This document shows, piece by piece, positions 8,036 to 60,590 of a stretch of DNA of 64,000 bases (the first letter of the stretch is position 1; each line of letters starts with the position of its first letter). The DNA is from a virus: the IMG/VR virus record IMGVR_UViG_3300037755_000828, positions 30,860 through 94,859 of that record, one strand, 5' to 3'. A program made the position numbers and the translations under genes. The notes under the pieces were generated by a model that had not been told where the DNA came from, did no database searches, and saw only the letters and a list, made by a program, of their open reading frames with translations.

Positions 8036-8060
8036 AACAGGGTCGGGTTAGCGGTATTCC
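8036..8060 (-). promoter_or_regulatory. ECF-type promoter GGAAT-N17-GTT
   Basis: 30 nt to ATG 8025. Confidence 0.75.
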
Positions 8061-8072
8061 CGGCGGTAGCGA

Positions 8073-8645
8073 TCACCAATCCACAGCTGCCGGAGCGTCG
8101 CGCCTGCGCCGTCCCATCACCGGGATCCGCTCACGCATGGGCCGCTCGACGGGCGGAGCTGCAGCCACGGCTACGCGTGCTGGCTTCGGTGCTGGTGCGG
8201 GCGTCGGCGCGACAGGTAGGACATGCCGCTCCCAGCAGATCGCCGCGCACGTAGGCGAGCCGCTGCGCGACAAGAACGCGGGCCCGTTGCACCGTCGGCA
8301 CCGGTGCAGCTCGGCCGTCTGTGCGGACTCGACCCGATTCATCAGGCGCCCGATGATCGCGGTGATCGTGCCCACCCGGTGCACCGCGCGGTCCTTGGCG
8401 AGCCCGCGATCTTGCGGCTTGCCCTCGTAGACCAGCGCGACCCGGATCGCATCCTCGCCGACCGCCCGGACCTGGTCCTGGACGATCGTGGTGTAGACCA
8501 TGACGGTGACGTTCGGCTCGCGCGCGCGGACGTAGACCGCCTCGCGGTAGCCGCTGCGCTTGGTGAACCCGAGCTGCTCGAGCTTGACGATGATGGCCGC
8601 CGCGAGCTCGCGGCGCTGGGTTGGGTTGGTCGGTTCGTACGCCAT
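8073..8645 (-). CDS. Hypothetical protein with C-terminal Cys motif
   Basis: TGATG overlap with helicase stop; CRRC...CAAIC. Confidence 0.7.
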   Translation of the reverse strand: MAYEPTNPTQRRELAAAIIVKLEQLGFTKRSGYREAVYVRAREPNVTVMVYTTIVQDQVRAVGEDAIRVALVYEGKPQDRGLAKDRAVHRVGTITAIIGRLMNRVESAQTAELHRCRRCNGPAFLSRSGSPTCAAICWERHVLPVAPTPAPAPKPARVAVAAAPPVERPMRERIPVMGRRRRDAPAAVDW

Positions 8646-10336
8646 CAGTGCTCCCCTCGATCGCGTTTGGGCGCCGGGATCTCGATGATCTCGGCCTTGG
8701 CCCTCGTATAGGCCACGTACGCGAGATTTTCTTCTTGCTCGATCTGCCACTCCTGGGTCGCGCGGCTCGACATCAGGCGGTCGTGCTCGAGGATCACAAC
8801 GCGATCGGCCTCGAGCCCCTTCGCCCGGTGCACCGTAGACAGCGTGACCGCGGCTTCCTTGGTTGCGAAGATGCGCTCGACCGCGGCGATCAGGGCGTCC
8901 TTGGACGTGGCCCCGCTGCTGCGGTGGATGATCCGCACGCACTCGATCCGATCTCCGAGCGCGTCGACGGCCGCGTCCGCAGCCTGCTCGTCGCGTGCAC
9001 GCGCCCGCAGCTTGGCCGTTTCGGCCTCCTCGTGCGCGGTCAGTCGGTCGCCGAAGGATGCCTGCCACGCGTCCCCGGCCAGACGCTTGCTCGCGCGCTT
9101 GATGACCTTGACCAGCCCCTGGCCCATGTCTGCGCGGCCCCGCACCATCGCGCTCGTCCCCGCCGCGATCAACTCGAAGCACAGCCCAATCAGCGGGGCC
9201 GTCCGACGGCAGATCACCAGGTCTCCGCTTGCCGCGATGTCGACGTAGTCGATGCGGTCGAGCGTGCGGACCGTGCCAACAGGCGCGCCGGGCCGTGCTT
9301 CGATGTCGGGTCGCCACTCGCGAGCGCGGGCGAGGTGCGAGGTCGGGCAGCGAAAGCAGATCGGCAGCGGAAGCACTTCCGCGCGCGTCTCTCGGATGAT
9401 CGCGTCGAAGCTCTCAGCGTCAGCTCCGGCGAAACCATTGATGGCCTGCCGGCGGTCCCCGATCCACATCATCCGGCCGCCCCGGCGCACGCTGGCGATC
9501 AGAAGCCGGCGCGCCGCCGTCGAGATGTCCTGGCACTCGTCGACGAGCACGAGGTCGTATTGCTTGGGGCGCAACGCTAGCACATTGGGCAACCAGAGCA
9601 TGTCGGTGAAGTCGACCCGCCACTTGCCCGAGCTCGGCACGGTGCAGCCGCGACGAAGCGCGTTGCGGACCGCGACCACGACGAGCGGCCACATCACCGC
9701 GTCCACGTCCACGTCGTAGCGATTCGCAAGCACGTCGAGGCCGCTCTCGTAGCGATCGCTGTCGAAGTCGAGCATGAACAGCCGCGCGAGCTTGGTCAGC
9801 TCGACGCACTCGGCCACGGGGAAGCCATCGTCTGTGATCGACGCGATCTGGTCCGCGCTCACCGGCTCTCCGCAGAGCGTCAGCACTTGGCCCCGGTCGC
9901 GTCGCTCTTCGAGAGCCAGAGCCGCAGCCTCGAACATCTGCGGGTACTTCAGCTCCTTCGTGTCGACGTCGATCTCGACCGCGCCGTTCAGCCCGATTCG
10001 CGCGAAGCAGAAGAAACGCAAGCACGCGAGACCATGCCCGTGGGCTGTCGTGGCCTTCGCCCGCGTCCCCTCGAGCCGAGACGCCAGCACGTCAGCGATC
10101 TCGCGATTGAACGCCACCGCGAGAACGTCGACATCTACCAAGCGGATAGCGTCCACGGAGGTGGTCGTCTTGCCCGAGCCAGCGCATGCGTCGACGACCA
10201 CGTTGCCGGTCCCCTTCGTGGCCCAGTCGAAGATCGCAGCCTGGTAGACCGACGGGGCGTAGCTCAGGCCAAGGAGTGCCTGGTATTGCACGGGTAGAAG
10301 GCGTGCGGCGTTCATGGGTAGGTGCGAGGTGGCCAT
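8645..10336 (-). CDS. UvrD/Rep-like SF1 DNA helicase
   Basis: ACAGSGKT, VDECQD, GDRRQAINGF, TVHRAKGLE, YVAYTRA. Confidence 0.95.
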   Translation of the reverse strand: MATSHLPMNAARLLPVQYQALLGLSYAPSVYQAAIFDWATKGTGNVVVDACAGSGKTTTSVDAIRLVDVDVLAVAFNREIADVLASRLEGTRAKATTAHGHGLACLRFFCFARIGLNGAVEIDVDTKELKYPQMFEAAALALEERRDRGQVLTLCGEPVSADQIASITDDGFPVAECVELTKLARLFMLDFDSDRYESGLDVLANRYDVDVDAVMWPLVVVAVRNALRRGCTVPSSGKWRVDFTDMLWLPNVLALRPKQYDLVLVDECQDISTAARRLLIASVRRGGRMMWIGDRRQAINGFAGADAESFDAIIRETRAEVLPLPICFRCPTSHLARAREWRPDIEARPGAPVGTVRTLDRIDYVDIAASGDLVICRRTAPLIGLCFELIAAGTSAMVRGRADMGQGLVKVIKRASKRLAGDAWQASFGDRLTAHEEAETAKLRARARDEQAADAAVDALGDRIECVRIIHRSSGATSKDALIAAVERIFATKEAAVTLSTVHRAKGLEADRVVILEHDRLMSSRATQEWQIEQEENLAYVAYTRAKAEIIEIPAPKRDRGEH

Positions 10337-10345
10337 GCCTGGATT

Positions 10346-10374
10346 GATATAGTCCCCGCGGGACTATATCGCAA
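10346..10374 (-). promoter_or_regulatory. Sigma70-type promoter TTGCGA-N17-TATATC overlapped by palindromic operator TATAGTCCC-N3-GGGACTATA
   Basis: 11-bp-arm palindrome 10346-10370; the same 21-mer occurs at 31344-31364. Confidence 0.85.
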
Positions 10375-10448
10375 CAACTATTTACAAGAACCGTCGACGC
10401 TCGCGTTTTCGCAGGCGGAACACCGTGCAGCCGCAAGCAATCCGCGCG

Positions 10449-11216
10449 TCAGGTCACCATCCTCCCCGGCGACCACCAAGACGCGGGGATCGGCCGCCCG
10501 CTCCCAACCGGCTCCCCGAGCTGCAGCCCGAGCGTGTCGATCGCCCACTCGCCAAGCTCGCGCCAGATCGCCGCGTCGCAGTCGTTGCCCCTCGAGCTGT
10601 GCCCATGCCGGTGCGGCGAGAGGTAGAGCGGTCGATCATGATGCTCGCGCAGCTGCTCGACGTAGTAGCGGATCAGCGCGCGGCCGGGCTCGACTTGCTC
10701 CGCGCTGATCGTCCGGTTGCCGGCGACCTCGATCGACACCGAGCGGCGGTTGAGCTCGTGCGCGGCGTAGAGGTAGGCCGTCAGCTCGTGGCAGAGAACC
10801 ACCGTCGCATCGTCAGCGACGGCGCCGTGGGTCGGGACCCCAAGCCAGCGATCCGGGTGCAGTCCGTCAACGCCCGCGGTGTGGAGCACGACCTTGTCGA
10901 TCGAGGACCACTCGCGGACGCCTCGAGACTGGCCGCGCTGTTTGTTCCGCGGATATCCGTAGGGCTTCGCGGGGTAGACCTTCACGCGGTCCCACGCCTG
11001 GCCCTTACCGCTGGTCCTGAAGTCGCGCGAGACCGTCGTCGCAGCGTGCAGGCGCGCGAGCGGGTTGCCGTCGTGCCCGAGTTCGGGACCAGCACTCAGG
11101 TCGATGCCAGGCAGCGCGCCGGCTTCGACGGCCAGCCGCTCGGCCTCCGTCACGCGTTCTTCGGCCAGCCGCTCAGCGAGGCCAGCGGTCAGCTGCTTGA
11201 GTAGTTCTCGGATCAC
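10449..11216 (-). CDS. N-acetylmuramoyl-L-alanine amidase (Amidase_2), probable endolysin
   Basis: VVLHTA, HG, SIEVAG, HRH...DC zinc-amidase motifs. Confidence 0.8.
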   Translation of the reverse strand: MIRELLKQLTAGLAERLAEERVTEAERLAVEAGALPGIDLSAGPELGHDGNPLARLHAATTVSRDFRTSGKGQAWDRVKVYPAKPYGYPRNKQRGQSRGVREWSSIDKVVLHTAGVDGLHPDRWLGVPTHGAVADDATVVLCHELTAYLYAAHELNRRSVSIEVAGNRTISAEQVEPGRALIRYYVEQLREHHDRPLYLSPHRHGHSSRGNDCDAAIWRELGEWAIDTLGLQLGEPVGSGRPIPASWWSPGRMVT

Positions 11217-13560: not shown

Positions 13561-15708
13561 TCACGTGGGTGAAACGAGTCGATGGGTGAGCCGGGTCCAC
13601 CGCCTCGTTGACACGGTCTGGACCGCTCGCTCGATTGCGTCGCGGTGCCCGACCAGAATGCACAGCGTCTTGGCTCGCGTAATCGCTGTGTATAGAAGGT
13701 TCCGGTTCAGCATTCGGCTTTCCCGGAGAACTGGCACAATGACGGCGGGGAACTCCCCGCCCTGGCTCTTGTGGATCGTCATTGCGTAGGCGAGCCGCAG
13801 GGCTCGTACATCGTATCGCTTGTACAGCTTGTGAGCGCCATCATAATCGACGGTGAGTGTTGATTCGTCAAGTCCGACGACAGTCCCAATATCGCCGTTG
13901 AACACGTTGCGATCATAGTCGTTGCGCATCTGCATGACGCGATCGCCTTCGCAAAACCGACGCCCCCCCGCGGCCCAAAACGAGTCTGCGTCGCGCCCTC
14001 CGTGGCTCAGTTGGAGCCGCGAGTTGAACGCCTCAGTCCCCGCGGGCCCGTGGTGCGTCGGGCAGAGGATCTGAACCTGATGCACAGGGTCGAGCCCATA
14101 CGCGACAGGGATCCTCCCTACGGCCAGGTGCACGACCTTGTGATGGGCCTTCTCTGCGTTCGCCGCGGGGACGATGTAGAACTGACCTTCGTTCCCACGC
14201 TCGGGGTCATCCGAAACGATCGTCTCGCCGCGGAGCATCCGGTGCGCGTTGCTGGTGATCGACGACCCACTGGCTTGCCGAAAGATCTCCCTGAGCCGAA
14301 CCACCGCTACGTTGAGCCCGACTTGGGCAGCGTCGATCACATCCGAGAGCACATTCCCGGGCCCAACCGACGGCAGCTGTTCGACGTCGCCCACAAGCAG
14401 GATCCGGTGCTCGATCGAGAGGGCAGCGAAGAGAGCGTCGGCGAGCTCGAGGTCGAGCATGGAGACTTCGTCGACGATCACCAGGCTCGCGGGCAGCGGG
14501 TTGGATTGGTCGTAGTGGAAGCCCCCGCCGGGCAGCGGTCGAAGCATGCGATGAATCGTGCTCGCTGGCTTCCCCGTGGCCTCGGTGAGCCGCTTGGCAG
14601 CTCGGCCCGTGGGTGCGCACAGAGTGACCTCCCCTCGCGCGCGCTCGGCCATCTCCAGCACGGCCGCGATCGCAGTGCTCTTGCCCGTCCCCGGCCCGCC
14701 CGTCAGAACCGTGACCCCGGATCGTGCGACCGCAGCAAGCACGTCGTGCTGAGCGGCCGACAGATCGTGCGAGCTCGACGAATCCCACACCGCGCGGACC
14801 GGACGCGTCAGTGCGCGGATCTGGCTGGCCACGCGCCGCTCCATCTTGTCCGTGCCAGCGAGGAGCAACAGCCCCGTCTCATAGCGGAGCACCCCGCGCT
14901 CTACCAACCGCTCGACGGCTTCGTCGACGACACGACCTCGGACACGTCCGAGCAAATCCGCAGCTGCTCGCTCGAGTTCGGGGCTCGGCATGCCGCAGTG
15001 TCCATCAGCGCGCTGGTGCACCAGCGTCTGGATCACGCCCGCCTCGACTCGGTCACCATTCTCGGGGTCGAGCCCCGTCGCGCGGGCGAATTTCTCCGCG
15101 AGCTTGAACCCGAATCGCTCCACATAGATCGCCACCTTGAACGGGTGATTGTCGAGCATGTCGAGGCCCTGTTCCCCGAACTTCTCGTGGATCGACTTCG
15201 CCAGTCCTGGCGGCGCACCAACAGCGATCAATCGGTTTTTGATCTGCGCAACTGGCCCGCTCTGCCGATGATGATGATCACGGAGTTTCGCAAACGCCTT
15301 CTTGCCGAGCCCCGGAATGTGAAGAAGGTCGTCAATGCTGCTGTCCATCACCGCCCAGGTTCGCTCGCCGAATTGCTCGACGATGCGCTCCGCCGTGCGC
15401 TCGCCGACGCCCGGGTACGTAATCAGCCTCGCTATGATCTGCTCCTCCGTCGTCGGCGCGCGCAGCTCAAGCGTCTCGAACCTGAACTGGCGGCCGTGTT
15501 TCGGGTCCTCGGCCCACCGACCGCGTGCGATGAACTTGGCTCCCTTCTCTACGCCCCCAACGAGTTCGCCCACCATCGTCTCCTCGCGATCCTCGACCGT
15601 AGCGAGGATCACAGAGAACCCCGAGTGCGGATCGCGGAATCGAATTCCATTGATCTCCCCTTCGACGACATCGGCTGTCGCTGCTGCGCTGTCTTCGCGA
15701 GTGGTCAT
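13561..15708 (-). CDS. recD2: ATP-dependent RecD-like helicase
   Basis: N-terminal OB/HhH region, GGPGTGKS, APTGRAAKR, DEVSM, QLPSVGPG, TIHKSQG. Confidence 0.97.
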   Translation of the reverse strand: MTTREDSAAATADVVEGEINGIRFRDPHSGFSVILATVEDREETMVGELVGGVEKGAKFIARGRWAEDPKHGRQFRFETLELRAPTTEEQIIARLITYPGVGERTAERIVEQFGERTWAVMDSSIDDLLHIPGLGKKAFAKLRDHHHRQSGPVAQIKNRLIAVGAPPGLAKSIHEKFGEQGLDMLDNHPFKVAIYVERFGFKLAEKFARATGLDPENGDRVEAGVIQTLVHQRADGHCGMPSPELERAAADLLGRVRGRVVDEAVERLVERGVLRYETGLLLLAGTDKMERRVASQIRALTRPVRAVWDSSSSHDLSAAQHDVLAAVARSGVTVLTGGPGTGKSTAIAAVLEMAERARGEVTLCAPTGRAAKRLTEATGKPASTIHRMLRPLPGGGFHYDQSNPLPASLVIVDEVSMLDLELADALFAALSIEHRILLVGDVEQLPSVGPGNVLSDVIDAAQVGLNVAVVRLREIFRQASGSSITSNAHRMLRGETIVSDDPERGNEGQFYIVPAANAEKAHHKVVHLAVGRIPVAYGLDPVHQVQILCPTHHGPAGTEAFNSRLQLSHGGRDADSFWAAGGRRFCEGDRVMQMRNDYDRNVFNGDIGTVVGLDESTLTVDYDGAHKLYKRYDVRALRLAYAMTIHKSQGGEFPAVIVPVLRESRMLNRNLLYTAITRAKTLCILVGHRDAIERAVQTVSTRRWTRLTHRLVSPT

Positions 15709-15726
15709 GGTAGACGACGCCCATGC

Positions 15727-15752
15727 AACCGGCGCTACCGCCGACCTGTTCC
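15727..15752 (-). promoter_or_regulatory. ECF-type promoter GGAAC-N18-GTT for recD2
   Basis: Intergenic; 39 nt to ATG 15708. Confidence 0.7.
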
Positions 15753-16248: not shown

Positions 16249-16787
16249 CGCGACTCGACCTTGGTCGGCTGCATGAGGCGAGGGAGATCGTGGAATTCGG
16301 CGATCGTGATGTAGCGGTTGCCGACGTAGTACTTGCCGGCCTGTGTCCGATGGGCGCGATAGACCGGGCGTCCGTGGTCATTGTGAACCATCGGCTCGCC
16401 CAGCAGGAACATGCGGAAGCCGCCGCGCTCAGCAGCTGGCGGTACCGCGCCGAGCGAGTCGTTGAACGCTTCCTCGGTCGAGGGCAGCCACGCGAACTCG
16501 ACCGGCTCGATCCTCAGGGCGTCGAGGTAGGCCGTGAGCGAGCGGTACAGCTCGACATCTTGCCCGTCCTGATCATCGTCGACCAGCCCGAGGGCGATCG
16601 CACGCTGACCGAGCGCCACCGCGAACGCGTCACGGTCATCGTTCGGCCACCAGTTCTGCGGGCCCGCGTCGCCGCGCAGGTGAGCGACCAGCACCGCGCC
16701 GTCGGGTCCGTCGAGAAGCTCAGGCGCGGGGTCGGCTTCGACCGCGGCGGTGCGCGGGTGCATCGGGACCTTGGTCGTGGTGGTCAT
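16245..16787 (-). CDS. Hypothetical protein
   Basis: Start 30 nt from ECF -35. Confidence 0.7.
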   Translation of the reverse strand: MTTTTKVPMHPRTAAVEADPAPELLDGPDGAVLVAHLRGDAGPQNWWPNDDRDAFAVALGQRAIALGLVDDDQDGQDVELYRSLTAYLDALRIEPVEFAWLPSTEEAFNDSLGAVPPAAERGGFRMFLLGEPMVHNDHGRPVYRAHRTQAGKYYVGNRYITIAEFHDLPRLMQPTKVESR

Positions 16788-16796
16788 GGTCGGCAG

Positions 16797-16822
16797 GACA
16801 ACCGGTAACCCTGTGGCATTCC
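16797..16822 (-). promoter_or_regulatory. ECF-type promoter GGAAT-N18-GTC
   Basis: 30 nt to ATG 16787. Confidence 0.8.
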
Positions 16823-18522: not shown

Positions 18523-19506
18523 TCACAGTGGCAGGGTTTGGATGCCGTGCCGATGGGCTGGCGTCCAGTCATTACGAGTCAGTCGGTCGAGCGCGTCGAA
18601 CAACTGCGATTTGTAGATCTCACGCCCGCGCTCGCGTTGCTCGGGGGTCAAGGCATACACGCTCACGCCGTGCTTGCCGTCGCTGTCTGGCTCGCTCGTG
18701 ACGGCGATCCACATCCACGACACCGACTCGCCAGTCAGTGCCTCGGTCGCGTCGGCGTAGAGAGCGGCTTGCGGTAGGTAGCCGAACTTGCGTACAGATT
18801 GGGCAAGTAACCCGGGCGAGTCCATCGCCGTCGACTTCAAGTCTACGTCGTAGAGACCGGGTGAAAGGTCAGTCCCAAATGCATCGACGGCGCTGATGCG
18901 CGTCAGCCAATCGACGCGCACCTTGACGAGCAACTCGGTCATCGGCTCACGCCACACGATCGTCTGTTCGGGTAAGCCGATGCTCCCGAGTAGGGCCGAC
19001 GCAACATCGTGCCGACACACAGCATCGCAGATACCGTTGATCCGGGTGAGATCGTCACAGGTCAGCGGGATCGCGTCCGGGTTCCGCCTCGCGGTGATCT
19101 CATACGCAGACTCGGCCCGCTTCCACAGCTCGTACGCGAGGCGCTCGGGAGACCCAGCCGCCGCCCCAGCGCGTGCGTGCGCTGGTTTGGTTGGCTTGGC
19201 CAGCCATGTGCTGGCGAACCGATCTCGCTCAAGAATGGCGGCGTGCAGCACAGTCCCGAAGCGCATGTCGTTGGTGGCCTCGTGTTCGACGGTTTCGCCA
19301 CGCACCCACGCACCTAGTTGCAGCGGTTTGTACGGCAGCAGGCCAAGGGCACTTCGGGTGAGCGCCCTTCGATCTGCGAAGTACTGCCGCTCGGACCAGC
19401 TGACAGCGATCGCTTGCCCAGGTTCGATCGCGTCGAAGTCCTCGGCAGCGTGCTCCTGCAGGAGCACGGCTCCCTTCGTTCGCTGCGGATCGGCTACCCC
19501 GTGCAC
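18523..19506 (-). CDS. RecE-like PD-(D/E)XK exonuclease (DUF3799 type)
   Basis: FGTVLHAAILE, EQTIVW, KVRVD, DLKST, FGYLPQAALY; adjacent to recT. Confidence 0.9.
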   Translation of the reverse strand: MHGVADPQRTKGAVLLQEHAAEDFDAIEPGQAIAVSWSERQYFADRRALTRSALGLLPYKPLQLGAWVRGETVEHEATNDMRFGTVLHAAILERDRFASTWLAKPTKPAHARAGAAAGSPERLAYELWKRAESAYEITARRNPDAIPLTCDDLTRINGICDAVCRHDVASALLGSIGLPEQTIVWREPMTELLVKVRVDWLTRISAVDAFGTDLSPGLYDVDLKSTAMDSPGLLAQSVRKFGYLPQAALYADATEALTGESVSWMWIAVTSEPDSDGKHGVSVYALTPEQRERGREIYKSQLFDALDRLTRNDWTPAHRHGIQTLPL

Positions 19507-19515
19507 GGCCAGAGC

Positions 19516-19540
19516 AACACCCGCGCCAGACGCCTATTCC
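19516..19540 (-). promoter_or_regulatory. ECF-type promoter GGAAT-N17-GTT for recE-recT-alkB
   Basis: 29 nt to GTG 19506. Confidence 0.8.
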
Positions 19541-24250: not shown

Positions 24251-24540
24251 AACGGCGCCGCCTCGTGGCTGGTCCAGCCCGAGTTAGTCTTCGAGCGCCC
24301 GGCGGCGAACTCGACCACCTCCGATTCGGTGAATCGCCGGAATCCGATGTCGCGCTCCCACATCCAGAGCCCTGACTCGTTCGGGGCTGTTGCTTTGAGG
24401 GTGTCGATCTCCAGCATCTCGGCGATGCTCACCGGAGGCGTGTCGCTGAACGAATCGTCGTCGATGAAGCTCGGCTCGAGCACGCCCATGGAATCCGGCT
24501 GTGGCCGGTAGAACACCATCTTGTTGGCTGTTCGTTTCAT
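24247..24540 (-). CDS. Hypothetical protein
   Basis: Start 29 nt from ECF -35. Confidence 0.7.
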   Translation of the reverse strand: MKRTANKMVFYRPQPDSMGVLEPSFIDDDSFSDTPPVSIAEMLEIDTLKATAPNESGLWMWERDIGFRRFTESEVVEFAAGRSKTNSGWTSHEAAPL

Positions 24541-24549
24541 TCGTGGCTC

Positions 24550-24574
24550 AACCTGCGCGCCCCCGCGTCATTCC
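24550..24574 (-). promoter_or_regulatory. ECF-type promoter GGAAT-N17-GTT
   Basis: 29 nt to ATG 24540; overlaps upstream GAA TGA stop. Confidence 0.8.
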
Positions 24575-26322: not shown

Positions 26323-26432
26323 CGGCCATCTCCGGGAGGAAGAAGCCCGCTCTCGGTGAACGACAGCGAGCGTGAGGCGAGCTCGCGCAGCAGCTGCAGG
26401 TGTTTGGCTTGGACGGTTACCTGGTCTTGCAC
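26319..26432 (-). CDS. 37-aa ORF absent from the ORF track
   Basis: GTG 30 nt from ECF -35; GTGA overlap with next gene. Confidence 0.6.
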   Translation of the reverse strand: MQDQVTVQAKHLQLLRELASRSLSFTESGLLPPGDGR

Positions 26433-26441
26433 GCGCGGCGA

Positions 26442-26467
26442 GACCAAAGGGCCGCGCTCGCTATTCC
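26442..26467 (-). promoter_or_regulatory. ECF-type promoter GGAAT-N18-GTC
   Basis: 30 nt to GTG 26432. Confidence 0.8.
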
Positions 26468-41832: not shown

Positions 41833-43547
41833 TCGACGTCTACCGCATCCGGCTCGCCTACATTCCCCCAAACGCTCCCGAGCGGCGGCTTGTCCGGGTT
41901 GTGCCCGCGCTTGCGCAGGTAGGCGGCCGCGAGCTTGCGCATCGCGTCGGGGTCCGTCTTGACCTCGAGCAGCCGCTCGCCCTTCGGATCAAGCACGCCG
42001 TCGGACTGCCAGCGCTTCACGCCAAGCGCGTCGAGGATCACCGGGTCGGAGCCCTCGTCGGCGAGCATCCAATATTCCATGGTCGGCGCGGCCTGGCCGT
42101 CGCGATGGATTCGCCCAGTCAGCTGCTGGTGCACGTGCGGGGACCAGTCGAGCTCGCCGTGCACCACCCGGTGGCAGACGTCCTGCAGCCCGTCGATCCC
42201 CTGACCCGAGCGCAGGCTCATGATCAACAGCTTGCTCTCGCCCGAGATCAGCGCCTGCGCAGCCGCGTCCTTTTCCTTGCTGCCCTCGTGCCCGGTGTAG
42301 AAGGCCGGCTTCCAGCGCGCGAGCTTCTGGCGCCAGATGTCGTAGACGTCGTGGTGCCAGCCGGACAGCAGCACCGGCTCGCCCGTGGTCTCGAGCAGCT
42401 CGTCGACGAAGGCCGCGACCGCGGGTGCCTTGGAGACGCCCGTCCAGCGACGCAGCTTGTAGTCGATCTCGCCGCGCGCCAGGAACCTGTCCTTGGGCGC
42501 GCCGTAGAGCGCCTGCCAAGCGAGGTCCTCGAGCTCGCCGCCGAGCCTCCCATCGAGCGGCACGTCGACCACGCTGCGGATGATCGGAGGAAGCTCGCGG
42601 CCGACGTCGACGCGGGAGCGCCGGAGCATCAATCCTTGCTCGCGCAGCCACGCTCCGAAGGCCACGGGATCCACGATGCGCAGCTTCTCGTCGGTGCCCG
42701 CACACCACTCGCGGGTGAACTCGGCCCGCTCCCCAAGCGCACCGGGACAGATCACGCCAAGCACGTTGTAGAACTCCCCGCCGTAGTTGAAGATCGGCGT
42801 CGCGCTCAGGGCCATGCAGCGCAGCGCCTTAGTGCGCAGCTCGAGCGCGCCGATGTACTTGCGCGTGCCGGCGTGGCGCAGCTCGTGGGCCTCATCGAAG
42901 ACAACCGCGCACGCCTCGAGTTCGGAGCCCCAAGCGGTGAGCCGCGAGTAGGCCATCACGATCACGTCCGCCCGCGCGCGCTTGGCCGCGCGGCGCTTGC
43001 TCTCCCCGCTCGGGCTGGACCGGACCACGTACACTTTCGCGCTCGGCAGGAACTCGGCGAGCTTGCGTTCCCACTGCTCGAGCACGTTGAGCGGGACCAC
43101 GACCACCGCCGGCAGGTTGCCCTTGCGCGCGAGCAGGGCGATCGCCGTCACGGTCTTGCCCAGCCCGAGCTCGTCGGCGCACAGGAGCCCGCCCATCGTG
43201 TCGCACAGCTCGGCCGCCAGGTCCTGGTAGTCGCGCGCGGGCTTGGCCATCGCCAGCTGCGGTCGCGCGTAGGTGCCGGTCAGGGCGAGTTGAATCCGCG
43301 CCAGCGCGTCGCGGTGAGCTTGAGCGAGCCGCTGCAGCTTGGCCGCAGTCTTCGGGCCCGCGTCCATCGGAAAGCGGCTGACGAACCACTCCAGCTCGGC
43401 GCTCACGGCCGGGGTCGCGCTCAGCCGCAGCCGCTTGCTGGCGACGTCGACGCGCGGAAACCAACGCTTGACCATGATCGAGACGTGCGGCGTCACGTCA
43501 TCGAGCACCCACGAGTTGCCCTCGTGGACCAGGCTGCCGTAGGTCAC
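41829..43547 (-). CDS. SNF2-family SF2 helicase
   Basis: LCADELGLGKT, FDEAH, LSATP, QLTGRIHRDGQ. Confidence 0.93.
   Translation of the reverse strand: MTYGSLVHEGNSWVLDDVTPHVSIMVKRWFPRVDVASKRLRLSATPAVSAELEWFVSRFPMDAGPKTAAKLQRLAQAHRDALARIQLALTGTYARPQLAMAKPARDYQDLAAELCDTMGGLLCADELGLGKTVTAIALLARKGNLPAVVVVPLNVLEQWERKLAEFLPSAKVYVVRSSPSGESKRRAAKRARADVIVMAYSRLTAWGSELEACAVVFDEAHELRHAGTRKYIGALELRTKALRCMALSATPIFNYGGEFYNVLGVICPGALGERAEFTREWCAGTDEKLRIVDPVAFGAWLREQGLMLRRSRVDVGRELPPIIRSVVDVPLDGRLGGELEDLAWQALYGAPKDRFLARGEIDYKLRRWTGVSKAPAVAAFVDELLETTGEPVLLSGWHHDVYDIWRQKLARWKPAFYTGHEGSKEKDAAAQALISGESKLLIMSLRSGQGIDGLQDVCHRVVHGELDWSPHVHQQLTGRIHRDGQAAPTMEYWMLADEGSDPVILDALGVKRWQSDGVLDPKGERLLEVKTDPDAMRKLAAAYLRKRGHNPDKPPLGSVWGNVGEPDAVDVE
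41841..41866 (-). promoter_or_regulatory. ECF-type promoter GGAAT-N18-GTA (drives rmf-like and MTase genes)
   Basis: 29 nt to ATG 41832. Confidence 0.75.
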
Positions 43548-43894: not shown

Positions 43895-45114
43895 TGGTCA
43901 CCCGATGGCTCCCCGCCGGGCGGCTCGACGGTACCACCGAGTGCGTCAGCAACGAGTTTGGTTGTTTTCTCGAACTCCGCGCGGAAGCCAACAAGCGGCG
44001 CGCCCAACTCGACCACAACATCCGACCCGACCCGACCGGCGCATTCTTCAATCTCTTCGAGTTTCACGCGGATCCGCAACAGGTCGGCGCGTGGGATGTT
44101 GTCGAGATCGGCGCGGACGATGTTGAATTCGCGGGCAATCTCGTTGGCCAGCAACCTGGTGATGTCGCCATCGCCCAGGCGCACGACGACCTCGCCGCTC
44201 GGCTCGGGCTGGACGAGCTGGGCGCGCCACTCGTCGGCTTGACGATCAGCTCGCGCGTGCGCGGCCGCCCGCTGTTCGGCGAGCTGGGCCCGCAGCTGCT
44301 CGACCTCGCGCTGGAGCAGCGCCGCCTCGAACTCTGGCTCTGGCTTGCGCGGCATGGTCGCGGCTACGGCGATCTCCGCGACGGTCCGGCGGAGCCCGTC
44401 GCGGTTGTCCGCGATCCCGCGAGCGCCGTAGCCCGCTCGTAGGATGACCTCGAGCATCGCGTTCGCACCCTCCATGCGGGCCCACTCGATCCGGTCGTCG
44501 TGGCCCTCGGGCTCGGGCTCGAGCAGGACCGCGAGCATCCGCTGGATCACGTCCTCGGCATCGCTGTCGGCAATGCTGTCGCTCGCCGCGATCGCGCGGG
44601 CGATCACACCCTTGTGAACTTCGAGCTGTTCGTCGCGATCTTCGAGGAGCGCGCGCGCCACTTCATCCGCGTGCTCGTAGGGGCACTCGTTCAGCGCTTC
44701 GCCGTCCCAGCCGAGCCGGCGAAGGACGAGATCAAGTTGTTCGCGGAGCACTTCGGCAATGGAGTCTTCGGCCATGGAACACGGCAACGCGACCGCCGCG
44801 TCGCTATTCCCGCGCAGCTCGAGCGCAAGCGCCTCCAATGCACGACCGACCGCCTTTGCGGTTTTGCCGTCCGGCCACCGATCGAGCTGATCCGAGACCG
44901 ACTGGCAGGCCGCCAGCACCGTGGTGTGGTGCCGCCCGACGAGCCGGCCGATCACAGGGAAGCTCAGGCGGGTCTGGGTGCGTATCAGGTAGAACGCGAC
45001 CAGGCGAGGCGCCGCAATGGTGCTGATCCGAGACCGGCCGAGGAGCGCATCGACGGTGATGTCGTTGGCGCGCGCGACCGCGGCGAGGATGTTCACCGGC
45101 TTGGTGTCGCTCAT
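43891..45114 (-). CDS. DnaA C-terminal (domain IV) HTH fused to a coiled-coil region
   Basis: LLGRSR...APRLVAFYLIR..TRLSFPVIGRLVGRHHTTVLAA. Confidence 0.85.
   Translation of the reverse strand: MSDTKPVNILAAVARANDITVDALLGRSRISTIAAPRLVAFYLIRTQTRLSFPVIGRLVGRHHTTVLAACQSVSDQLDRWPDGKTAKAVGRALEALALELRGNSDAAVALPCSMAEDSIAEVLREQLDLVLRRLGWDGEALNECPYEHADEVARALLEDRDEQLEVHKGVIARAIAASDSIADSDAEDVIQRMLAVLLEPEPEGHDDRIEWARMEGANAMLEVILRAGYGARGIADNRDGLRRTVAEIAVAATMPRKPEPEFEAALLQREVEQLRAQLAEQRAAAHARADRQADEWRAQLVQPEPSGEVVVRLGDGDITRLLANEIAREFNIVRADLDNIPRADLLRIRVKLEEIEECAGRVGSDVVVELGAPLVGFRAEFEKTTKLVADALGGTVEPPGGEPSGDQ
44786..44810 (-). promoter_or_regulatory. Intragenic ECF-type promoter GGAAT-N17-GTT
   Basis: 30 nt to in-frame ATG 44775. 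Confidence 0.7.
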
Positions 45115-46163: not shown

Positions 46164-46336
46164 GGCTGACCACCGGTCCCCAGAAAACCGACGAGTGAGC
46201 CGACCAGGCCGAACGCGAAAATCAGCGCGACCCAGACATCGCCAACGTAGGCGGCCACGAACAGCGCCACCACACAGAGCATGCAGAGCACCGCGAAGAT
46301 CACGAGCAACGGTAAAGGCGGCGGCGATTCCAGCAT
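46160..46336 (-). CDS. Small two-TM membrane protein
   Basis: Two hydrophobic segments; ATG 30 nt from ECF -35. Confidence 0.65.
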   Translation of the reverse strand: MLESPPPLPLLVIFAVLCMLCVVALFVAAYVGDVWVALIFAFGLVGSLVGFLGTGGQP

Positions 46337-46345
46337 GGACCTGGC

Positions 46346-46371
46346 TACTCGCCTTCGTCGGATGGCATTCC
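46346..46371 (-). promoter_or_regulatory. ECF-type promoter GGAAT-N18-GTA
   Basis: 30 nt to ATG 46336. Confidence 0.75.
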
Positions 46372-49511: not shown

Positions 49512-50141
49512 TCACTGACCTGACGGCACCGCGCCGTCGAGCAGCTCGATGAACGCGGCCTCGATCGCCCCCGTTGGAGGAACGGCCACCGAGTAGTAGG
49601 TCACGCTGCATCCGAATTGCGGCAGCTCGCAGCTCAAGCGGGCGAGTTCGACATACGCCCAGCCGAACGTCAGCTTGAACGTACCTGCAACAGGGTCGAG
49701 CGCTGGCTGACTGTTGACCAGCACCTGCGCGGCTTCGTCGAGCTCGCCGGCCAGCAGAAAGCCGCAGCCGTGTTCGTCGGCGCGGGTTTTGTAGATGGCG
49801 AACAGATCCTCGTGCGTCGTCGGCCGGGCCGTGTCGGTCAGCACCGCGTGCGTAGTCAGCACCGCGATCCTCGTGCTCTCGGGCGGCTCTTCGAGCACGA
49901 GGTCGGTGACGAACATGTCGATGCTGCCGACGAGCGTGCCCTCCGACGACGGCTGCGGCGGCCAATGCTGACGCAGGCTCACGGTCAGCTTGGGACCGTG
50001 AGTGAAGTACTTGTCGCCGAAGCGGAGCAGTCCTTGCTCGTCGATGTTCTCGCGGGCGAATGCTGCTGCGTCGGCGAGCTGGTCGCGGATGAATACGAAG
50101 ACCGTGTGGTCCCTATCGTTGGTGATGTGCACGTGTGCCAT
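49512..50141 (-). CDS. Hypothetical protein
   Basis: ATG 50141 is 29 nt from ECF -35. Confidence 0.7.
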   Translation of the reverse strand: MAHVHITNDRDHTVFVFIRDQLADAAAFARENIDEQGLLRFGDKYFTHGPKLTVSLRQHWPPQPSSEGTLVGSIDMFVTDLVLEEPPESTRIAVLTTHAVLTDTARPTTHEDLFAIYKTRADEHGCGFLLAGELDEAAQVLVNSQPALDPVAGTFKLTFGWAYVELARLSCELPQFGCSVTYYSVAVPPTGAIEAAFIELLDGAVPSGQ

Positions 50142-50150
50142 GTCGCCCAT

Positions 50151-50175
50151 GACTGCGACGGGCGCTAGCTATTCC
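50151..50175 (-). promoter_or_regulatory. ECF-type promoter GGAAT-N17-GTC
   Basis: 29 nt to ATG 50141. Confidence 0.75.
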
Positions 50176-50521
50176 TGGGAGGCACGGTCAGCTCGCGACC
50201 ATCCGCGAGTGCGTCTTGGCGGATGTTGCGGGCGAGCCTCCGCAACATCCGCTGCATCGACTTCACGACCGGGGCGCCTTGCTGGTAGACCACGCCGATC
50301 GTCTGGGCCGGATGCTTGTGGACCTCGACGCAGACGTTGGTCAACATGACTTTGACCCTCGGCTCGTCCGTGAGGGCTGCGAGCTTGATGGTCTCGGCGA
50401 CGAGACCGGCGTAGGCGATGTCGCCCGCGACATCGGGCTCGCCTACGGTGGGCTCGGTGATGACGTAGAGAATGCCGTCTTTGTCGGCGGTGGATTCGGT
50501 TGATGTCCTGACCTGGGGCAT
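50165..50521 (-). CDS. Hypothetical protein, possible Roadblock/LC7 (MglB-like) fold
   Basis: Size and apparent beta-alpha-3beta-alpha pattern only. Confidence 0.45.
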   Translation of the reverse strand: MPQVRTSTESTADKDGILYVITEPTVGEPDVAGDIAYAGLVAETIKLAALTDEPRVKVMLTNVCVEVHKHPAQTIGVVYQQGAPVVKSMQRMLRRLARNIRQDALADGRELTVPPRNS

Positions 50522-50529
50522 GGGCGCTC

Positions 50530-50556
50530 GAAGCGTCGAACGGGCGGAGCTATTCC
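50530..50556 (-). promoter_or_regulatory. ECF-type promoter GGAAT with poor -10 (TTC at N19)
   Basis: 30 nt to ATG 50521. Confidence 0.55.
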
Positions 50557-51402: not shown

Positions 51403-51843
51403 TCATGGCTTGGGCTCCGCGAGCCGGCGACAGGCATGCACAACGAGCCGGCGGCGGTGCGTCTGCGTCGGATGTAGCCACGACTCAACCCGCCAGCCGT
51501 CGTGCTCGAGCTCGCGGAGCTGCGTGTCGATGTAGGCCTCAACCAAGATGCCCGGCCCGACCGTCTGCTCGGACACGAACCACTCGAACTCGACCGGCTT
51601 CGGCACCCACTTCAGCACCGCGAGCACGGCTGCGAGTTCGTCGGACGTGAGGTGGATGTGCTGCGTCAGCGCGGCTGTGGTTGAGACAGCGTCGACGAGC
51701 TCGGCGAAGTTGTCCGGCAACCGGCCCGTTCGACCGAACAGCAGCACCCTCCACCAGCCGCCCATGTCGCGCAGCACGTACGCAGCTTGGATGGCCTTCA
51801 GCCGGCCGAAGAACCCGAGAGGCTTGTCGGTGAAAACCTGCAT
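51403..51843 (-). CDS. Hypothetical protein, paralog of 51881-52282
   Basis: Shared GWWRVL.FGRTG, KP..F.W, GWRV..W. Confidence 0.75.
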   Translation of the reverse strand: MQVFTDKPLGFFGRLKAIQAAYVLRDMGGWWRVLLFGRTGRLPDNFAELVDAVSTTAALTQHIHLTSDELAAVLAVLKWVPKPVEFEWFVSEQTVGPGILVEAYIDTQLRELEHDGWRVESWLHPTQTHRRRLVVHACRRLAEPKP

Positions 51844-51852
51844 CGCGCCAGC

Positions 51853-51878
51853 TACCGCACCGAGCACCCGGTCATTCC
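51853..51878 (-). promoter_or_regulatory. ECF-type promoter GGAAT-N18-GTA
   Basis: 30 nt to ATG 51843. Confidence 0.8.
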
Positions 51879-51880: not shown

Positions 51881-52282
51881 TCAGTGCATGTAACCGCGTC
51901 CGCTGCAGGCTGAGCATGGCGGGTGGCGAAGCTCCGCGCGCAGCGACGGCGAGATGTCGCAGTCCTGGCATCGGCGACGGGACGCTCGAACGAAGAACGT
52001 GGCGGACGTCCGCCAGGGCCTGACCGTCCAATGCGAGACCCTCCAGCCCGTGCCGAACAGGCTTGCGACTCGCGTGGCGATGAACGCCGGGAGCATGCCA
52101 GGCGCCGCGAGGTCGACCTCGAACTGATGCCAGTCGAACTGGAGAGGCTTTGCGGGCATCGGTCCGGTCCTGCCAAACGCGAGGACGCGCCACCATCCAG
52201 CGGTGTCGCCGAGCTTCTTTGCTGCGAGAACCAGATCGAGTCGTTGTCGGAGGCCAAGCGGTCGAGCGAGGAGTACCTGCAC
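51881..52282 (-). CDS. Hypothetical protein, paralog of 51403-51843, with C-terminal CxxC pair
   Basis: Both start MQV at the same promoter distance. Confidence 0.75.
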   Translation of the reverse strand: MQVLLARPLGLRQRLDLVLAAKKLGDTAGWWRVLAFGRTGPMPAKPLQFDWHQFEVDLAAPGMLPAFIATRVASLFGTGWRVSHWTVRPWRTSATFFVRASRRRCQDCDISPSLRAELRHPPCSACSGRGYMH

Positions 52283-52291
52283 GACGTTGCG

Positions 52292-52317
52292 TACCACACC
52301 GGCGAGCGCGACATTCC
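52292..52317 (-). promoter_or_regulatory. ECF-type promoter GGAAT-N18-GTA
   Basis: 30 nt to GTG 52282. Confidence 0.8.
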
Positions 52318-59151: not shown

Positions 59152-59795
59152 GCATCCTCGCGCTCAAGCCGATCCTCGAAGGCGGCCAGCTTGTCGCGCA
59201 CGTAGACGACGGGCCGCATGGTGATCTCGATGTTCTTGTTGCCTGGCTCTGCGTTGCGACCGAGCCAGGCTTGGCGCTCAGCGTGGCCAGTGTTCCACCG
59301 CTGCGGGAACACGACGGCACGACCGCCGGTGCGGACACCTTGCTGGTTCGCCACGAAGGACTCGCAGTTCTTGTCGGCGTCATCGATCAGCACCGCGCCC
59401 GGGTACGCGCACGCGTACTTCGCAGGTCCGATCAGGTAGTCGCGGAAGCTCGAACCGAAGACCGACTGCAGCCACTTGGTCTTGCCAGCTGCCGCTGCGG
59501 GATCCTTCGACGGCGAGGTCAAGATCGTCGTCGGGGCCGTGCGCACGCACAGCGACATGAGGTCGAGGCACCAGGGAAGCGGCTCCAGCTCCGCCCAGAA
59601 TGCGGCTCCAGCCTCGTTGATTGGGCGCCACATCTCGTTGCCGCTGATGCCGAGCACCTCTGCCAGATCGTAGACGCCGGCCGGCCACGCCGCGAGGATC
59701 GAGCTCGGGTCGTGGTCGTGCAGCCGGATCGCGGCGCTGGCCCAGTCAGCGAGCACGCCATCGAGGTCGAGGAAGATGCGAGGAATTCGGGTCAT
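59142..59795 (-). CDS. HAD 5'(3')-deoxyribonucleotidase (NT5C-like)
   Basis: IFLDLDGVLAD, ILTSP, K..W, LIDD. Confidence 0.88.
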   Translation of the reverse strand: MTRIPRIFLDLDGVLADWASAAIRLHDHDPSSILAAWPAGVYDLAEVLGISGNEMWRPINEAGAAFWAELEPLPWCLDLMSLCVRTAPTTILTSPSKDPAAAAGKTKWLQSVFGSSFRDYLIGPAKYACAYPGAVLIDDADKNCESFVANQQGVRTGGRAVVFPQRWNTGHAERQAWLGRNAEPGNKNIEITMRPVVYVRDKLAAFEDRLEREDAWS

Positions 59796-59805
59796 CGCTA
59801 CCACG

Positions 59806-59830
59806 AACCGCGACCGCTGCGGCGCATTCC
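59806..59830 (-). promoter_or_regulatory. ECF-type promoter GGAAT-N17-GTT
   Basis: 30 nt to ATG 59795. Confidence 0.8.
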
Positions 59831-59851
59831 TGTGCGTGGTAGCGTGTCGGT

Positions 59852-60226
59852 GTGGCCTCCGAATTCTTCCTCGAGACCCAGTCATTGGTCACGCCGCGCC
59901 TGCGGATCGGCTACCGAGTGAGCGTCGGCGCTCGCTGTCTGGCCAAGCGCTCGGGCCCTGGCTTGATCGGGATCGAGATCCGGCGTGGCGACGGCGGGGG
60001 TGTCGCGACCTACCCGGCCGCCGTCGACTTTCTCGTCTACGGACCAGTAGCCGCTGCCGAGGAGATCACGCTTGAGCTCGGGGCGATCGACATGGTCGGC
60101 GCAGGCTCCTATCTACGCACCTACCAGCTGCGCGTGATGGCGATCGGCGGAGTGGATGACGTCTCCGTGCGCGACGCGAATCTAGCGACCTCGCCGTACT
60201 CTGAGCCCGGCCTCGCTCCACCGTAG
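59852..60226 (+). CDS. Hypothetical protein
   Basis: TGG-TAGCGT-N6-GTG. Confidence 0.6.
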   Translation: MASEFFLETQSLVTPRLRIGYRVSVGARCLAKRSGPGLIGIEIRRGDGGGVATYPAAVDFLVYGPVAAAEEITLELGAIDMVGAGSYLRTYQLRVMAIGGVDDVSVRDANLATSPYSEPGLAPP

Positions 60227-60232
60227 AAACGC

Positions 60233-60556
60233 TCAGCCCTCGCGTTCTCCGGTCACGATCAGGATCTGGATGCCCGCGACGAAGCACTCGTACTCGAGCA
60301 AGTCGGTTCGCAGCTCGAACTTGTAGCCGTAAGCCAACTTCGCGGACTCGGGGCCAGGCCACACCGCTATGAAGTCCGCCGGCATGTAGCTGTCGACCTC
60401 ATCCGGGTTGACCCTTCGTGCGATCTCCAGCACGCGATCGACATCGGCTTCGCTACGGACCCAGATCCGGCCGTAGCTTTTTCGGACGAGCGTCGGTCCG
60501 TAACGGCCGTTTTCGCCACGCAGCCAAGACGGATAGATGGTTGCGTCTGGTGCCAT
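60233..60556 (-). CDS. Hypothetical protein
   Basis: ATG 29 nt from ECF -35. Confidence 0.7.
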   Translation of the reverse strand: MAPDATIYPSWLRGENGRYGPTLVRKSYGRIWVRSEADVDRVLEIARRVNPDEVDSYMPADFIAVWPGPESAKLAYGYKFELRTDLLEYECFVAGIQILIVTGEREG

Positions 60557-60564
60557 TCCGACGC

Positions 60565-60590
60565 AACCGCCCGCGCGCGCGGGCCATTCC
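60565..60590 (-). promoter_or_regulatory. ECF-type promoter GGAAT-N18-GTT
   Basis: 29 nt to ATG 60556. Confidence 0.85.

Follow-up and report, generated by a model that had tools for sequence, protein, structure and literature searches.

The phage sigma factor and its relatives

The 64,000-nt stretch of DNA analysed here (hereafter the window) covers the final two thirds of one virus record of 94,859 bp (IMG/VR IMGVR_UViG_3300037755_000828), for which CheckV estimated the whole record to be 97% complete; the DNA runs containing this phage are sediment metagenomes. The phage DNA has a GC content of 66.6%, and 110 of the 125 genes of the whole genome, as predicted with a codon-usage gene caller written for this analysis, are located on the minus strand. 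Among them is a gene encoding a SigH-like sigma factor of the extracytoplasmic function (ECF) type (28690-29337), while the starts of many others are preceded, on the coding (minus) strand, by a two-block element of the form (g)GGAAT(A/G)-N17/18-(G)GT(T/C/A). Taken together, the findings described below make it probable that the phage ECF sigma factor drives ~25 promoters of its own genome, most of which would give rise to leaderless mRNAs.

The sigma factor was shown to comprise just regions 2 and 4, domains of regions 1.1 and 3 being absent, which is the composition of an ECF (group 4) sigma factor, and it matched the sigma70-ECF model TIGR02937 with 89 bits (cut-off 42.9). The best NCBIfam model was TIGR02947 (SigH_actino; 164.8 bits, under its cut-off of 251.55), and the best match in the PDB was Mycobacterium tuberculosis SigH (5zx2; E=5.5e-42, 147 bits compared with 97 for the next entry). 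The preliminary description of this DNA, made from the sequence alone, had likened the protein to the SigR/SigH group, a likeness that holds in so far as SigH represents both the best solved match and the best model, but that does not extend to membership of the ECF12 lineage, given the score of 164.8 against 251.55 bits.

Contact residues were read from an alignment to chain F of 5zx2, with residue roles taken from PMC6411747. The phage protein shares with SigH the region 4 residues R186, S182 and M181, which in SigH contact G-34, G-33 and A-31, respectively (Li et al. 2019, PMC6411747), and also the backbone-contacting residues Y166, K167, T179, R183 and R188. Identity extends to the residues of the -10 pocket (F72, T76, N77, W81, I85, N88 and I91) and to R99. 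The differences from SigH comprise H185->Y, N92->T, R73->Q, Y83->F and K96->R, with position 92 being T in this phage and N in most close relatives.

The nearest named homologues were found to be chromosomal ECF sigma factors of Enhygromyxa salina (three strains), Plesiocystis pacifica, Pseudenhygromyxa and Nannocystaceae/Polyangia metagenome-assembled genomes (MAGs), with 67-74% identity. Nannocystaceae strain ST9 encodes exactly one orthologue (69%) among ~60 ECF sigma factors, the next best reaching 37%. The best loci from Actinomycetes and Streptomyces exhibited 38-43% identity, and the best sigma factors of four Trueperaceae genomes just 30-31%. The closest annotated phage homologues in the phage database were the rpoE genes of Rhizobium/Sinorhizobium T4-like phages (29-34% identity); a megablast search of this database with 20 kb of the phage returned no match, and tblastn searches with the sigma factor and the helicase returned distant phages only. 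Sigma factor homologues with 74-94% identity were located on 60-100-kb contigs (P0004, P0114, P0023 and others).

For comparison, three complete viral genomes bounded by direct terminal repeats were used (G001, 89 kb; G002, 143 kb; G003, 81 kb), whose sigma factor homologues are 58-63% identical to that of the phage. In a maximum-likelihood tree, the sigma factors of all four phages formed a single subclade, nested in a clade with the Nannocystaceae chromosomal sigma factors (SH-aLRT 99-100), and the DNA-contact positions are kept in the clade as a whole, the host orthologue being 67-72% identical to the phage protein. Judged by these identities and the tree, the sigma factor lineage is Nannocystaceae-centred (myxobacterial) rather than actinobacterial, which we read as capture from a Nannocystaceae-like host, followed by faster evolution in phages.

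The promoter motif and predicted leaderless starts

Across the whole genome, GGAAT alone was not enriched on the minus strand (55 observed vs 61.7 in shuffles). Counted from the first G of GGAAT to the start codon, an ATG or GTG followed 10 of these 55 sequences at offset 34 and 12 of them at offset 35, and every other offset in the range 20-69 had 0-4. This peak was absent for GGAAT on the plus strand (19 occurrences in the genome) and for GGAAC on the minus strand (66 occurrences). The 18 GGAAT-start pairs enumerated in the preliminary description were all recovered at their coordinates, and, as it had reported, GT follows after N17 or N18 in 17 of them, the pair at 50556 having no usable -10 element.

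The composite GGAAT-N17/18-GT was observed 27 times compared with 6.0 expected (maximum of 14 in 200 dinucleotide shuffles), and the full pattern GGAATN{17,18}GTN{8,10}RTG occurred 15 times on the minus strand, but neither on the plus strand nor as a reversed-pattern control. Among sites picked by GGAAT and start codon alone, the GT of the -10 element was independently enriched (P=4e-6). With a two-block position weight matrix (PWM), 25 sites were obtained, all of them on the minus strand, whereas Markov controls gave a mean of 0.8 (maximum 3). Enrichment over background, set beforehand as a test of the motif, was borne out by shuffles, reversed pattern and Markov controls. The proposed set of ~20 sites was confirmed in the main and is not confined to the window, as five of the 25 PWM sites are located elsewhere in the genome (genome positions 17703, 18472, 19331, 21946 and 27225). 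Most sites were found within intergenic gaps of 25-70 nt (Table 1).

Two additional sites that had been described outside the 18 pairs were substantiated, namely the leadered N18-GTC site at 27955 and the GGAACAG-N18-GTT site at 15752, which places the ATG of the RecD2-like helicase at offset 44; the GGAAC form is permitted by the sigma-H consensus GGAAYA (PMC6411747). The position 20758, given as a weak site, has no GT at N17/18 spacing and was rejected as an ECF-type site.

The promoter recognized by M. tuberculosis sigma-H comprises GGAAYA at -34 to -29 and G-11 T-10 T-9, separated by a spacer of 16-17 bp with an optimum of 17 bp (PMC6411747), and, as far as can be read from the sequence, the phage motif has exactly this geometry. 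The same architecture was identified in the three related phages, with 9 (G001), 33 (G002) and 18 (G003) full-pattern sites and none in reversed controls, and with the start peak at offset 34/35 common to all three. As homologues of most motif-driven genes are missing from G001-G003, just two orthologue pairs could be compared; in both, the relative also carries a site, i.e. before the 275-aa protein (G002, 77% identity) and before the PDDEXK exonuclease (G003, site 73006-73041). The GGAAC site of RecD2 is not conserved before the G003 orthologue.

Cellular homologues of the sigma factor were shown to carry the motif in front of their own genes. Among 95 cellular loci with enough upstream sequence (31-73% identity), 66 contain GGAA[TC]-N16-19-GT[TCA] within 200 nt upstream of the sigma factor gene, compared with 6 and 5 loci when the opposite strand and the gene interior, respectively, served as controls. 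In all six Nannocystaceae orthologues, GGAAT-N17/18-GT(T/A) directly precedes the conserved N-terminus (M-E-A/T-A-A-R-R-E/D-F) at a distance of 35-38 nt, the ATG being 36-38 nt from the first G, whereas the motif-to-start distance in more distant homologues is 50-170 nt, start-fused sites being restricted to the Nannocystaceae genes and the phages. The commonest extended form among the cellular loci is GGAATAG...GGTT, as in the phage, indicating that the TAG belongs to the -35 element of the family and is not merely a convenient stop codon.

The element could also be read as something other than a promoter, i.e. as a protein-binding or RNA-level gene-boundary signal such as a stoperator, a start-associated sequence or a processing site. 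Such a signal would account for the strictly one-stranded occurrence of the element at gene junctions and for the presence of the upstream gene's stop codon within the -35 element at ~7 sites. At 50556, 36736 and 36382, for example, the TAG of GGAATAG terminates the upstream reading frame (a 266-aa gene, an open reading frame (ORF) and the gene 36376-36702, respectively), and at 24574 the TGA of GGAATGA is the stop codon of gene 24568-25671. Stop-containing junction elements are also reminiscent of the repressor stoperators of mycobacteriophage L5. We nevertheless consider such a signal exceedingly improbable: sequence conservation is confined to two short blocks, and the spacer between them is variable in sequence but constant in length (17-18), which is the form of an ECF promoter, both sequence and spacing match the sigma-H consensus, and each phage with the element encodes a cognate sigma factor. 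Furthermore, the element lies 21-170 nt from the starts of cellular sigma factor genes, and this variable distance implies independence from start and stop codons. The promoter reading is accordingly well supported by comparative sequence evidence, and we infer that the motif is a promoter, that it is read by the phage sigma factor rather than by the host orthologue, and that transcripts have the exact 5' ends given below.

If +1 is taken as T-9 plus 9 nt, as in the sigma-H geometry, transcription would start 34 nt from the first G of the motif, so that leaders of 0-2 nt are predicted at 19 sites; counted from the -10 element, these are 0 nt at six sites, 1 nt at eight and 2 nt at five. The corresponding 19 transcripts would thus have their 5' end on the start codon or 1-2 nt upstream of it, and would be translated as leaderless mRNAs. 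The absence of Shine-Dalgarno sequences, reported in the preliminary description, was confirmed, with a 5-mer match before none of the 20 scoreable motif-preceded starts, and the 4-mer matches found there coincide with the GGT of the -10 element. By comparison, an SD-like match is present before 55% of the non-motif genes, against 25% at random positions.

Alternatively, the sites may be ECF promoters whose mRNAs are not leaderless, with transcription beginning at another position or translation at a codon further downstream, and the spacing of 34/35 being a product of tight gene packing. The positions of the transcription starts are indeed derived only from the M. tuberculosis sigma-H geometry, and some sites clearly have leaders, such as those at 27955 (~87 nt), 15752 (~10 nt) and genome positions 21946 and 27225 (~30-40 nt). 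Moreover, a motif-blind coding-potential caller prefers a different start in 9 of 20 genes; it agrees with the motif-adjacent start in the other 11, and seven of the nine differ by 0.1-1.8 score units (e.g. start 8076 is favoured by 1.1 units at the 8060 site), with gaps of 3.7 units (46336) and 26.1 units (44775) for the remaining two. This explanation is deemed very unlikely, as the peak at exactly 34-35 nt is common to four phage genomes that have diverged from one another and is much sharper than would be expected from packing alone, the motif starts have no 5-mer SD match while other genes are SD-enriched, and a ribosome-binding site would not fit into the 8-10 nt that separate the -10 element from the start. 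The Nannocystaceae sigma factor genes themselves also have predicted leaders of just 3-5 nt.

Table 1. Positions of predicted ECF-type promoters and associated features in the window. Scores are those of the two-block PWM, leaders are predicted from the position of the -10 element, and 'blind' marks starts that equal the motif-blind coding-potential start call
Feature	Position	Strand	PWM score	Spacer and -10 element	Predicted leader	Remarks
Predicted promoter, leaderless start ATG 60556 (107 aa)	60554..60590	-	21.6	GGAATGG-N18-CGGTT	0 nt	blind
Predicted promoter, start ATG 59795	59793..59830	-	18.1	N17; CGGTT	2 nt	blind; 5'-nucleotidase NT5C (Pfam)
Predicted promoter, start GTG 52282 (133 aa)	52280..52317	-	18.7	N18; TGGTA	1 nt	
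Predicted promoter, start ATG 51843 (146 aa)	51841..51878	-	19.7	N18; CGGTA	1 nt	blind
Weak site GGAATAG, ATG 50521 at offset 35	50519..50556	-	below threshold	no GT -10		blind
Predicted promoter, start ATG 50141 (209 aa)	50139..50175	-	18.9	N17; CAGTC	1 nt	
Predicted promoter, start ATG 46336 (58 aa)	46334..46371	-	17.1	N18; GAGTA	1 nt	
ECF-type site inside ORF 43891-45114	44773..44810	-	18.1	N17; GCGTT		ATG 44775 is an internal Met
Predicted promoter, start ATG 41832 (107 aa)	41830..41866	-	16.1	N18; CGGTA	0 nt	blind
RMF (ribosome modulation factor) homologue, 64 aa	41314..41508	-				second gene after 41866 site; PF04957, 40.9 bits (cut-off 27.9)
Predicted promoter, start GTG 39420 (98 aa)	39418..39454	-	18.2	N18; CGGTC	0 nt	
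Predicted promoter, start GTG 36702 (108 aa)	36700..36736	-	20.3	N18; TTGTC	0 nt	blind
Predicted promoter, start ATG 36348 (275 aa)	36346..36382	-	18.5	N18; AGGTC	0 nt	
Predicted promoter, start GTG 32899 (82 aa)	32897..32933	-	17.9	N18; CGGTC	0 nt	
Gap upstream of sigma factor gene, 141 nt	29338..29478	-				GC 60%; no GGAAT/GGAAC composite
Phage ECF sigma factor, SigH-like, 215 aa	28690..29337	-				Pfam Sigma70_r2 (residues 23-85), Sigma70_r4_2 (128-177)
ORF directly after sigma factor gene, 137 aa	28280..28693	-				no Pfam or PHROG family
Predicted promoter, long leader	27921..27955	-	17.2	GGAATAG-N18-ACGTC	~87 nt	to ATG 27834
Predicted promoter, GTG 26432	26430..26467	-	17.8	N18; TGGTC		
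Predicted promoter, start ATG 24540 (97 aa)	24538..24574	-	15.2	N17; AGGTT	1 nt	blind
Predicted promoter, start GTG 19506	19504..19540	-	19.9	N17; GTGTT	1 nt	PDDEXK exonuclease
Predicted promoter, start ATG 16787 (180 aa)	16785..16822	-	17.2	N18; TTGTC	1 nt	blind
Probable promoter before RecD2-like helicase (ATG 15708)	15706..15752	-		GGAACAG-N18-GTT	~10 nt	RecD2 domains by Pfam
Predicted promoter, start ATG 8025 (178 aa)	8023..8060	-	20.8	N17; CTGTT	2 nt	

Regulation of the sigma factor, host and driver

ECF sigma factors usually transcribe their own genes. The gap upstream of the phage sigma factor gene contains no ECF site, and the phage sigma factor consequently does not have the autoregulatory promoter present in all six Nannocystaceae orthologues; no strict sigma70 consensus was found in this gap either. 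The nearest ECF site upstream of the sigma factor gene is that at 32933, whose 82-aa ORF is followed by a gene for an AAA ATPase (31509-32654, Pfam).

The cellular orthologues are also associated with a candidate anti-sigma factor, as an ORF with an anti-sigma-like N-terminus follows the sigma factor gene in five of the six Nannocystaceae loci (L011 could not be assigned). When two of these ORFs were scanned for the zf-HC2 domain (cut-off 22.2 bits), 29.7 bits were obtained for the Polyangia MAG locus L016 and 17.8 bits for the Enhygromyxa locus L012. The HxxxCxxC motif is absent from the ORFs of Enhygromyxa, Plesiocystis and the Nannocystaceae MAG L014, and is kept in L016 and in the more distant deltaproteobacterial locus L018. 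Since the nearest cellular anti-sigma factors are devoid of this motif, a role in thiol stress cannot be assumed. Neither tblastn nor a profile of the cellular anti-sigma N-terminal domains detected an anti-sigma homologue in the phage and its three relatives. The ORF directly downstream of the sigma factor gene (28280-28693) was rejected as an anti-sigma factor, as it has no match to the cellular anti-sigma factors in these same searches, belongs to no Pfam or PHROG family and has no homologue in G001-G003. The earlier suggestion of a stress-type sigma factor captured without its anti-sigma is upheld with respect to the missing anti-sigma homologue.

A lysogeny module was identified at 21100-22748, in which a tyrosine integrase gene (21387-22748, plus strand, Pfam) adjoins an attP site, whose core (~21181-21228) represents the 3' half of a tRNA-Gly(CCC) gene and is flanked by arm-type repeats (GAGTCAACAGC at 21103-21141 and 21338-21376). 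This arrangement indicates that the phage is temperate. The attP core is 100% identical to the tRNA gene of E. salina SWB005, but it is found exactly in many unrelated phyla too, and was therefore rejected as an uninformative host marker. No relatives of a 530-aa protein from the virion module region (genome 24314-25906) were detected in 185,579 species genomes. An 89-kb contig binned into a 'Pigmentiphaga' MAG (G004 contig C70, locus L017) was also rejected as a host link, because it carries the same nine sites as G001 and is phage G001 itself, indicative of a binning artefact. Nannocystaceae myxobacteria are, based on the sigma factor sequences, the likely hosts of this phage.

These observations can be accommodated in the following model. 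The phage ECF sigma factor would descend from a single-copy, SigH-like chromosomal sigma factor of the Nannocystaceae, a cellular ancestor that was transcribed from its own GGAAT-N17/18-GTT promoter and had an anti-sigma-like ORF next to it, and the phage copy would have lost both the autoregulatory promoter and the anti-sigma factor. Having neither, it should be constitutively active once expressed from a different promoter. Together with the host core RNA polymerase, it would then initiate transcription at ~25 phage promoters, all on the coding strand, with transcripts beginning at or near start codons and leaderless translation of 19 mRNAs. The genes served would mostly encode small proteins of no known function, and would further include exonuclease/RecT and nucleotide metabolism genes, genes adjacent to a helicase and a methylase, and a moron-like island in the virion module.

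The same sites could, however, be promoters whose main driver is the orthologous ECF sigma factor of the host, with the prophage listening to an envelope or stress signal of the host and the phage sigma factor acting as an amplifier or as a lysogenic-conversion gene on host promoters. This alternative draws on the identity and shared contact positions of the host orthologue noted above, on the presence of the same GGAAT-N17/18-GTT promoter at the host sigma factor genes, on the temperate nature of the phage, and on the position of the phage sigma factor gene, which has no ECF site of its own and lies downstream of the 32933 site, where read-through could couple it to host sigma activity. We regard it as unlikely. 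All four phages with this promoter architecture encode their own copy of the sigma factor, and the lack of a detectable anti-sigma factor for the phage protein fits autonomous action. In addition, the density of sites is ~158 per Mb in the phage compared with 2-3.5 per Mb in Nannocystaceae genomes (16-35 matches per 9-10.6 Mb, vs 3-9 in controls), i.e. 50-80 times higher, and the -10 element reads GTC or GTA at two thirds of the phage sites, as opposed to the cellular GTT.

Even so, several observations weigh against a regulon driven by the phage sigma factor as outlined in the model. The host orthologue, which is ~70% identical and shares the contact residues, could recognize these promoters as well and may be their driver. 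The third base of the -10 element (position -9 of sigma-H) is degenerate in this phage (T in 7, C in 7 and A in 5 sites) and mostly C in G002; the activity of M. tuberculosis SigH is lost when T-9 is changed, and the cellular promoters of the clade are almost all GTT, so that many of the phage sites may be weak or the specificity of the phage sigma factor may differ. With regard to individual sites, in-frame starts had been proposed at all 18, which holds for most of them; yet GTG 26432 opens just 37 codons, and the strong site at 44810 is intragenic, the enclosing frame being coding through the site (score +26, GC content at third codon positions 0.86). The site at 50556 falls below the PWM threshold. 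The sigma factor tree was obtained by a quick search with midpoint rooting, and the host assignment leans mainly on the sigma factor ancestry, with the attP core and the prophage search adding little. No RNA runs holding the phage are listed, and promoter activity, driving sigma factor and 5' ends are thus inferred.

Genes behind the sites and comparison with known systems

The genes served, presumed in the preliminary description to be middle genes, were proposed there to include recombination, methylase and nucleotide-metabolism functions, and these functions agree with the Pfam assignments obtained here. The exonuclease gene starting at 19506 is followed by genes for RecT and an AlkB-like oxygenase (Pfam DUF3799, RecT and 2OG-FeII_Oxy_2), and a methyltransferase gene (45111-46163, Pfam) comes after the 58-aa ORF at 46336. 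Around 12 genes directly behind sites have no known function, and PHROGs gave no match for ten motif-driven or sigma-adjacent proteins. The 41866 site is located in the 3' end of a helicase gene (41829-43547), and the second gene behind it (41314-41508) encodes what is, on its Pfam score, a true RMF family member; no RMF homologue was found in G001-G003 or in the E. salina and P. pacifica genomes.

Four of the sites outside the window (genome positions 17703, 18472, 19331 and 21946) belong to a 6.4-kb block (genome 15576-21960; L271:577-6961) between virion genes, consisting of four genes, each with its own ECF-type site. The virion module is shared with G003 at 75-97% amino-acid identity and the block is missing from G003; with its flanks so similar and four genes with their own sites, the block resembles a moron island.

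M. tuberculosis SigH and Streptomyces coelicolor SigR (ECF12) constitute the closest known systems. The likeness concerns the promoter grammar (GGAAYA, spacer and GT(T)), the sequence (best solved and best NCBIfam match) and the base-contacting residues, which are largely identical. SigH and SigR are paired with the ZAS anti-sigma factors RshA and RsrA, and the cellular orthologues of the phage protein are likewise autoregulated, with a zf-HC2 match in the following ORFs at one of the two loci tested. The phage sigma factor differs in that it is not actinobacterial and has neither a detectable anti-sigma factor nor an autoregulatory promoter, while its promoters have a degenerate third -10 base and are fused to start codons.

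Sigma factors encoded by phages are a well-known means of host takeover, but few of them have a defined promoter class. Phage-borne ECF-like sigma factors with their own promoter class are described for phiEco32 (gp36) and Salmonella phage 7-11 (PMC8948821, PMC4331800, PMC12276001). The strategy is alike, as a small phage sigma factor is reported to direct the core polymerase of the host to phage-specific promoters in front of many genes, and in the present phage, too, the sigma factor gene occurs on the same genome as 25 PWM sites (0.8 expected). Phages phiEco32 and 7-11 are lytic enterobacterial podophages with a sigma factor remote from those of the host, whereas the phage described here is temperate, encodes a sigma factor ~70% identical to a host ECF sigma factor, uses the promoter consensus of the host family and has a predicted leaderless configuration. 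The rpoE genes of the Rhizobium/Sinorhizobium T4-like phages are distant, and belong to another genome type and other hosts. To our knowledge, neither a regulon nor a leaderless architecture has been described for these genes.

A leaderless configuration with the -10 element next to the ORF is also common in Actinobacteria. In Deinococcus-Thermus, the -10 region was reported to lie directly next to the ORF, giving leaderless mRNA for which no SD sequence is needed (PMC12340547). As described there, the pattern involves a housekeeping-type -10 element in cellular genomes, and in the present case a predicted two-block ECF promoter is repeated ~20 times in a phage whose host is probably a myxobacterium. 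In a literature search, no work was found on phages of Nannocystaceae, nor on phage ECF promoters that are fused to start codons. The system would represent the known phage sigma strategy, of which no description was found for myxobacterial phages or in a leaderless configuration.

The regulon can be read from sequence, with ~25 sites in this phage and 9-33 in the three relatives, and its geometry fits the solved sigma-H open complex to the nucleotide. It thereby offers a testable model of a tightly controlled host stress sigma factor turned into an unregulated phage activator, a model for the fusion of ECF promoters to start codons, and a compact orthogonal sigma/promoter set. The motif would also be of use in annotation, as it fixes the start codons of ~20 otherwise ambiguous genes. 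Nannocystaceae are valued for their natural products, and the present genomes would represent the first candidate phages for this family.

The leaderless mRNAs and the RMF gene may link the takeover of transcription to that of translation. In its widest form, such a scheme would have a clade of Nannocystaceae phages operate a private expression channel, in which a freed ECF sigma factor acts on start-fused promoters, leaderless mRNAs bypass the SD sequence, RMF silences SD-led translation of the host but spares the leaderless mRNAs of the phage, and a host stress signal serves as a possible induction cue; the prophage could be wired to such a signal because its promoters share the consensus of the host sigma factor. 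As a whole, this scheme is unlikely.

Several minor observations concern individual sites and genes. Three further GGAAT-N17-GGTAT sites (window 527, genome 30518 and genome 27225) are located near or before lipoprotein-like genes at the left edge of the window, with starts ~5 to 40 nt past the -10 element, i.e. farther than at the leaderless sites; they possibly form a subclass with a -10 element ending in TAT. The N-terminal 110 residues of the 407-aa product of ORF 43891-45114 (minus strand) resemble, by eye, the DnaA DNA-binding domain IV.

A second sequence, TAnnnT-N5-7, precedes starts of ORFs of at least 50 aa at 18 places, ~10 of them at called gene starts. As a second leaderless class, TAnnnT-N6 was left aside, given that it produced no sharp genome-wide peak. 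In the divergent intergenic regions 52283-52353 and 59796-59851, an ECF-type site of the minus-strand gene stands back to back with a TAnnnT-N6-start of the plus-strand gene; at the former, the plus-strand start at 52354 is preceded by TATCGT-N6-ATG, opposite the site of GTG 52282. Finally, a 34-nt repeat that contains a palindrome (core GTGAGACATCATGTCTCAC) occurs twice at 57259-57334, directly upstream of a helix-turn-helix protein gene (57359-58186, plus strand) whose start is preceded by TACCAT-N6-GTG, and this repeat pair may represent an operator of the immunity region.

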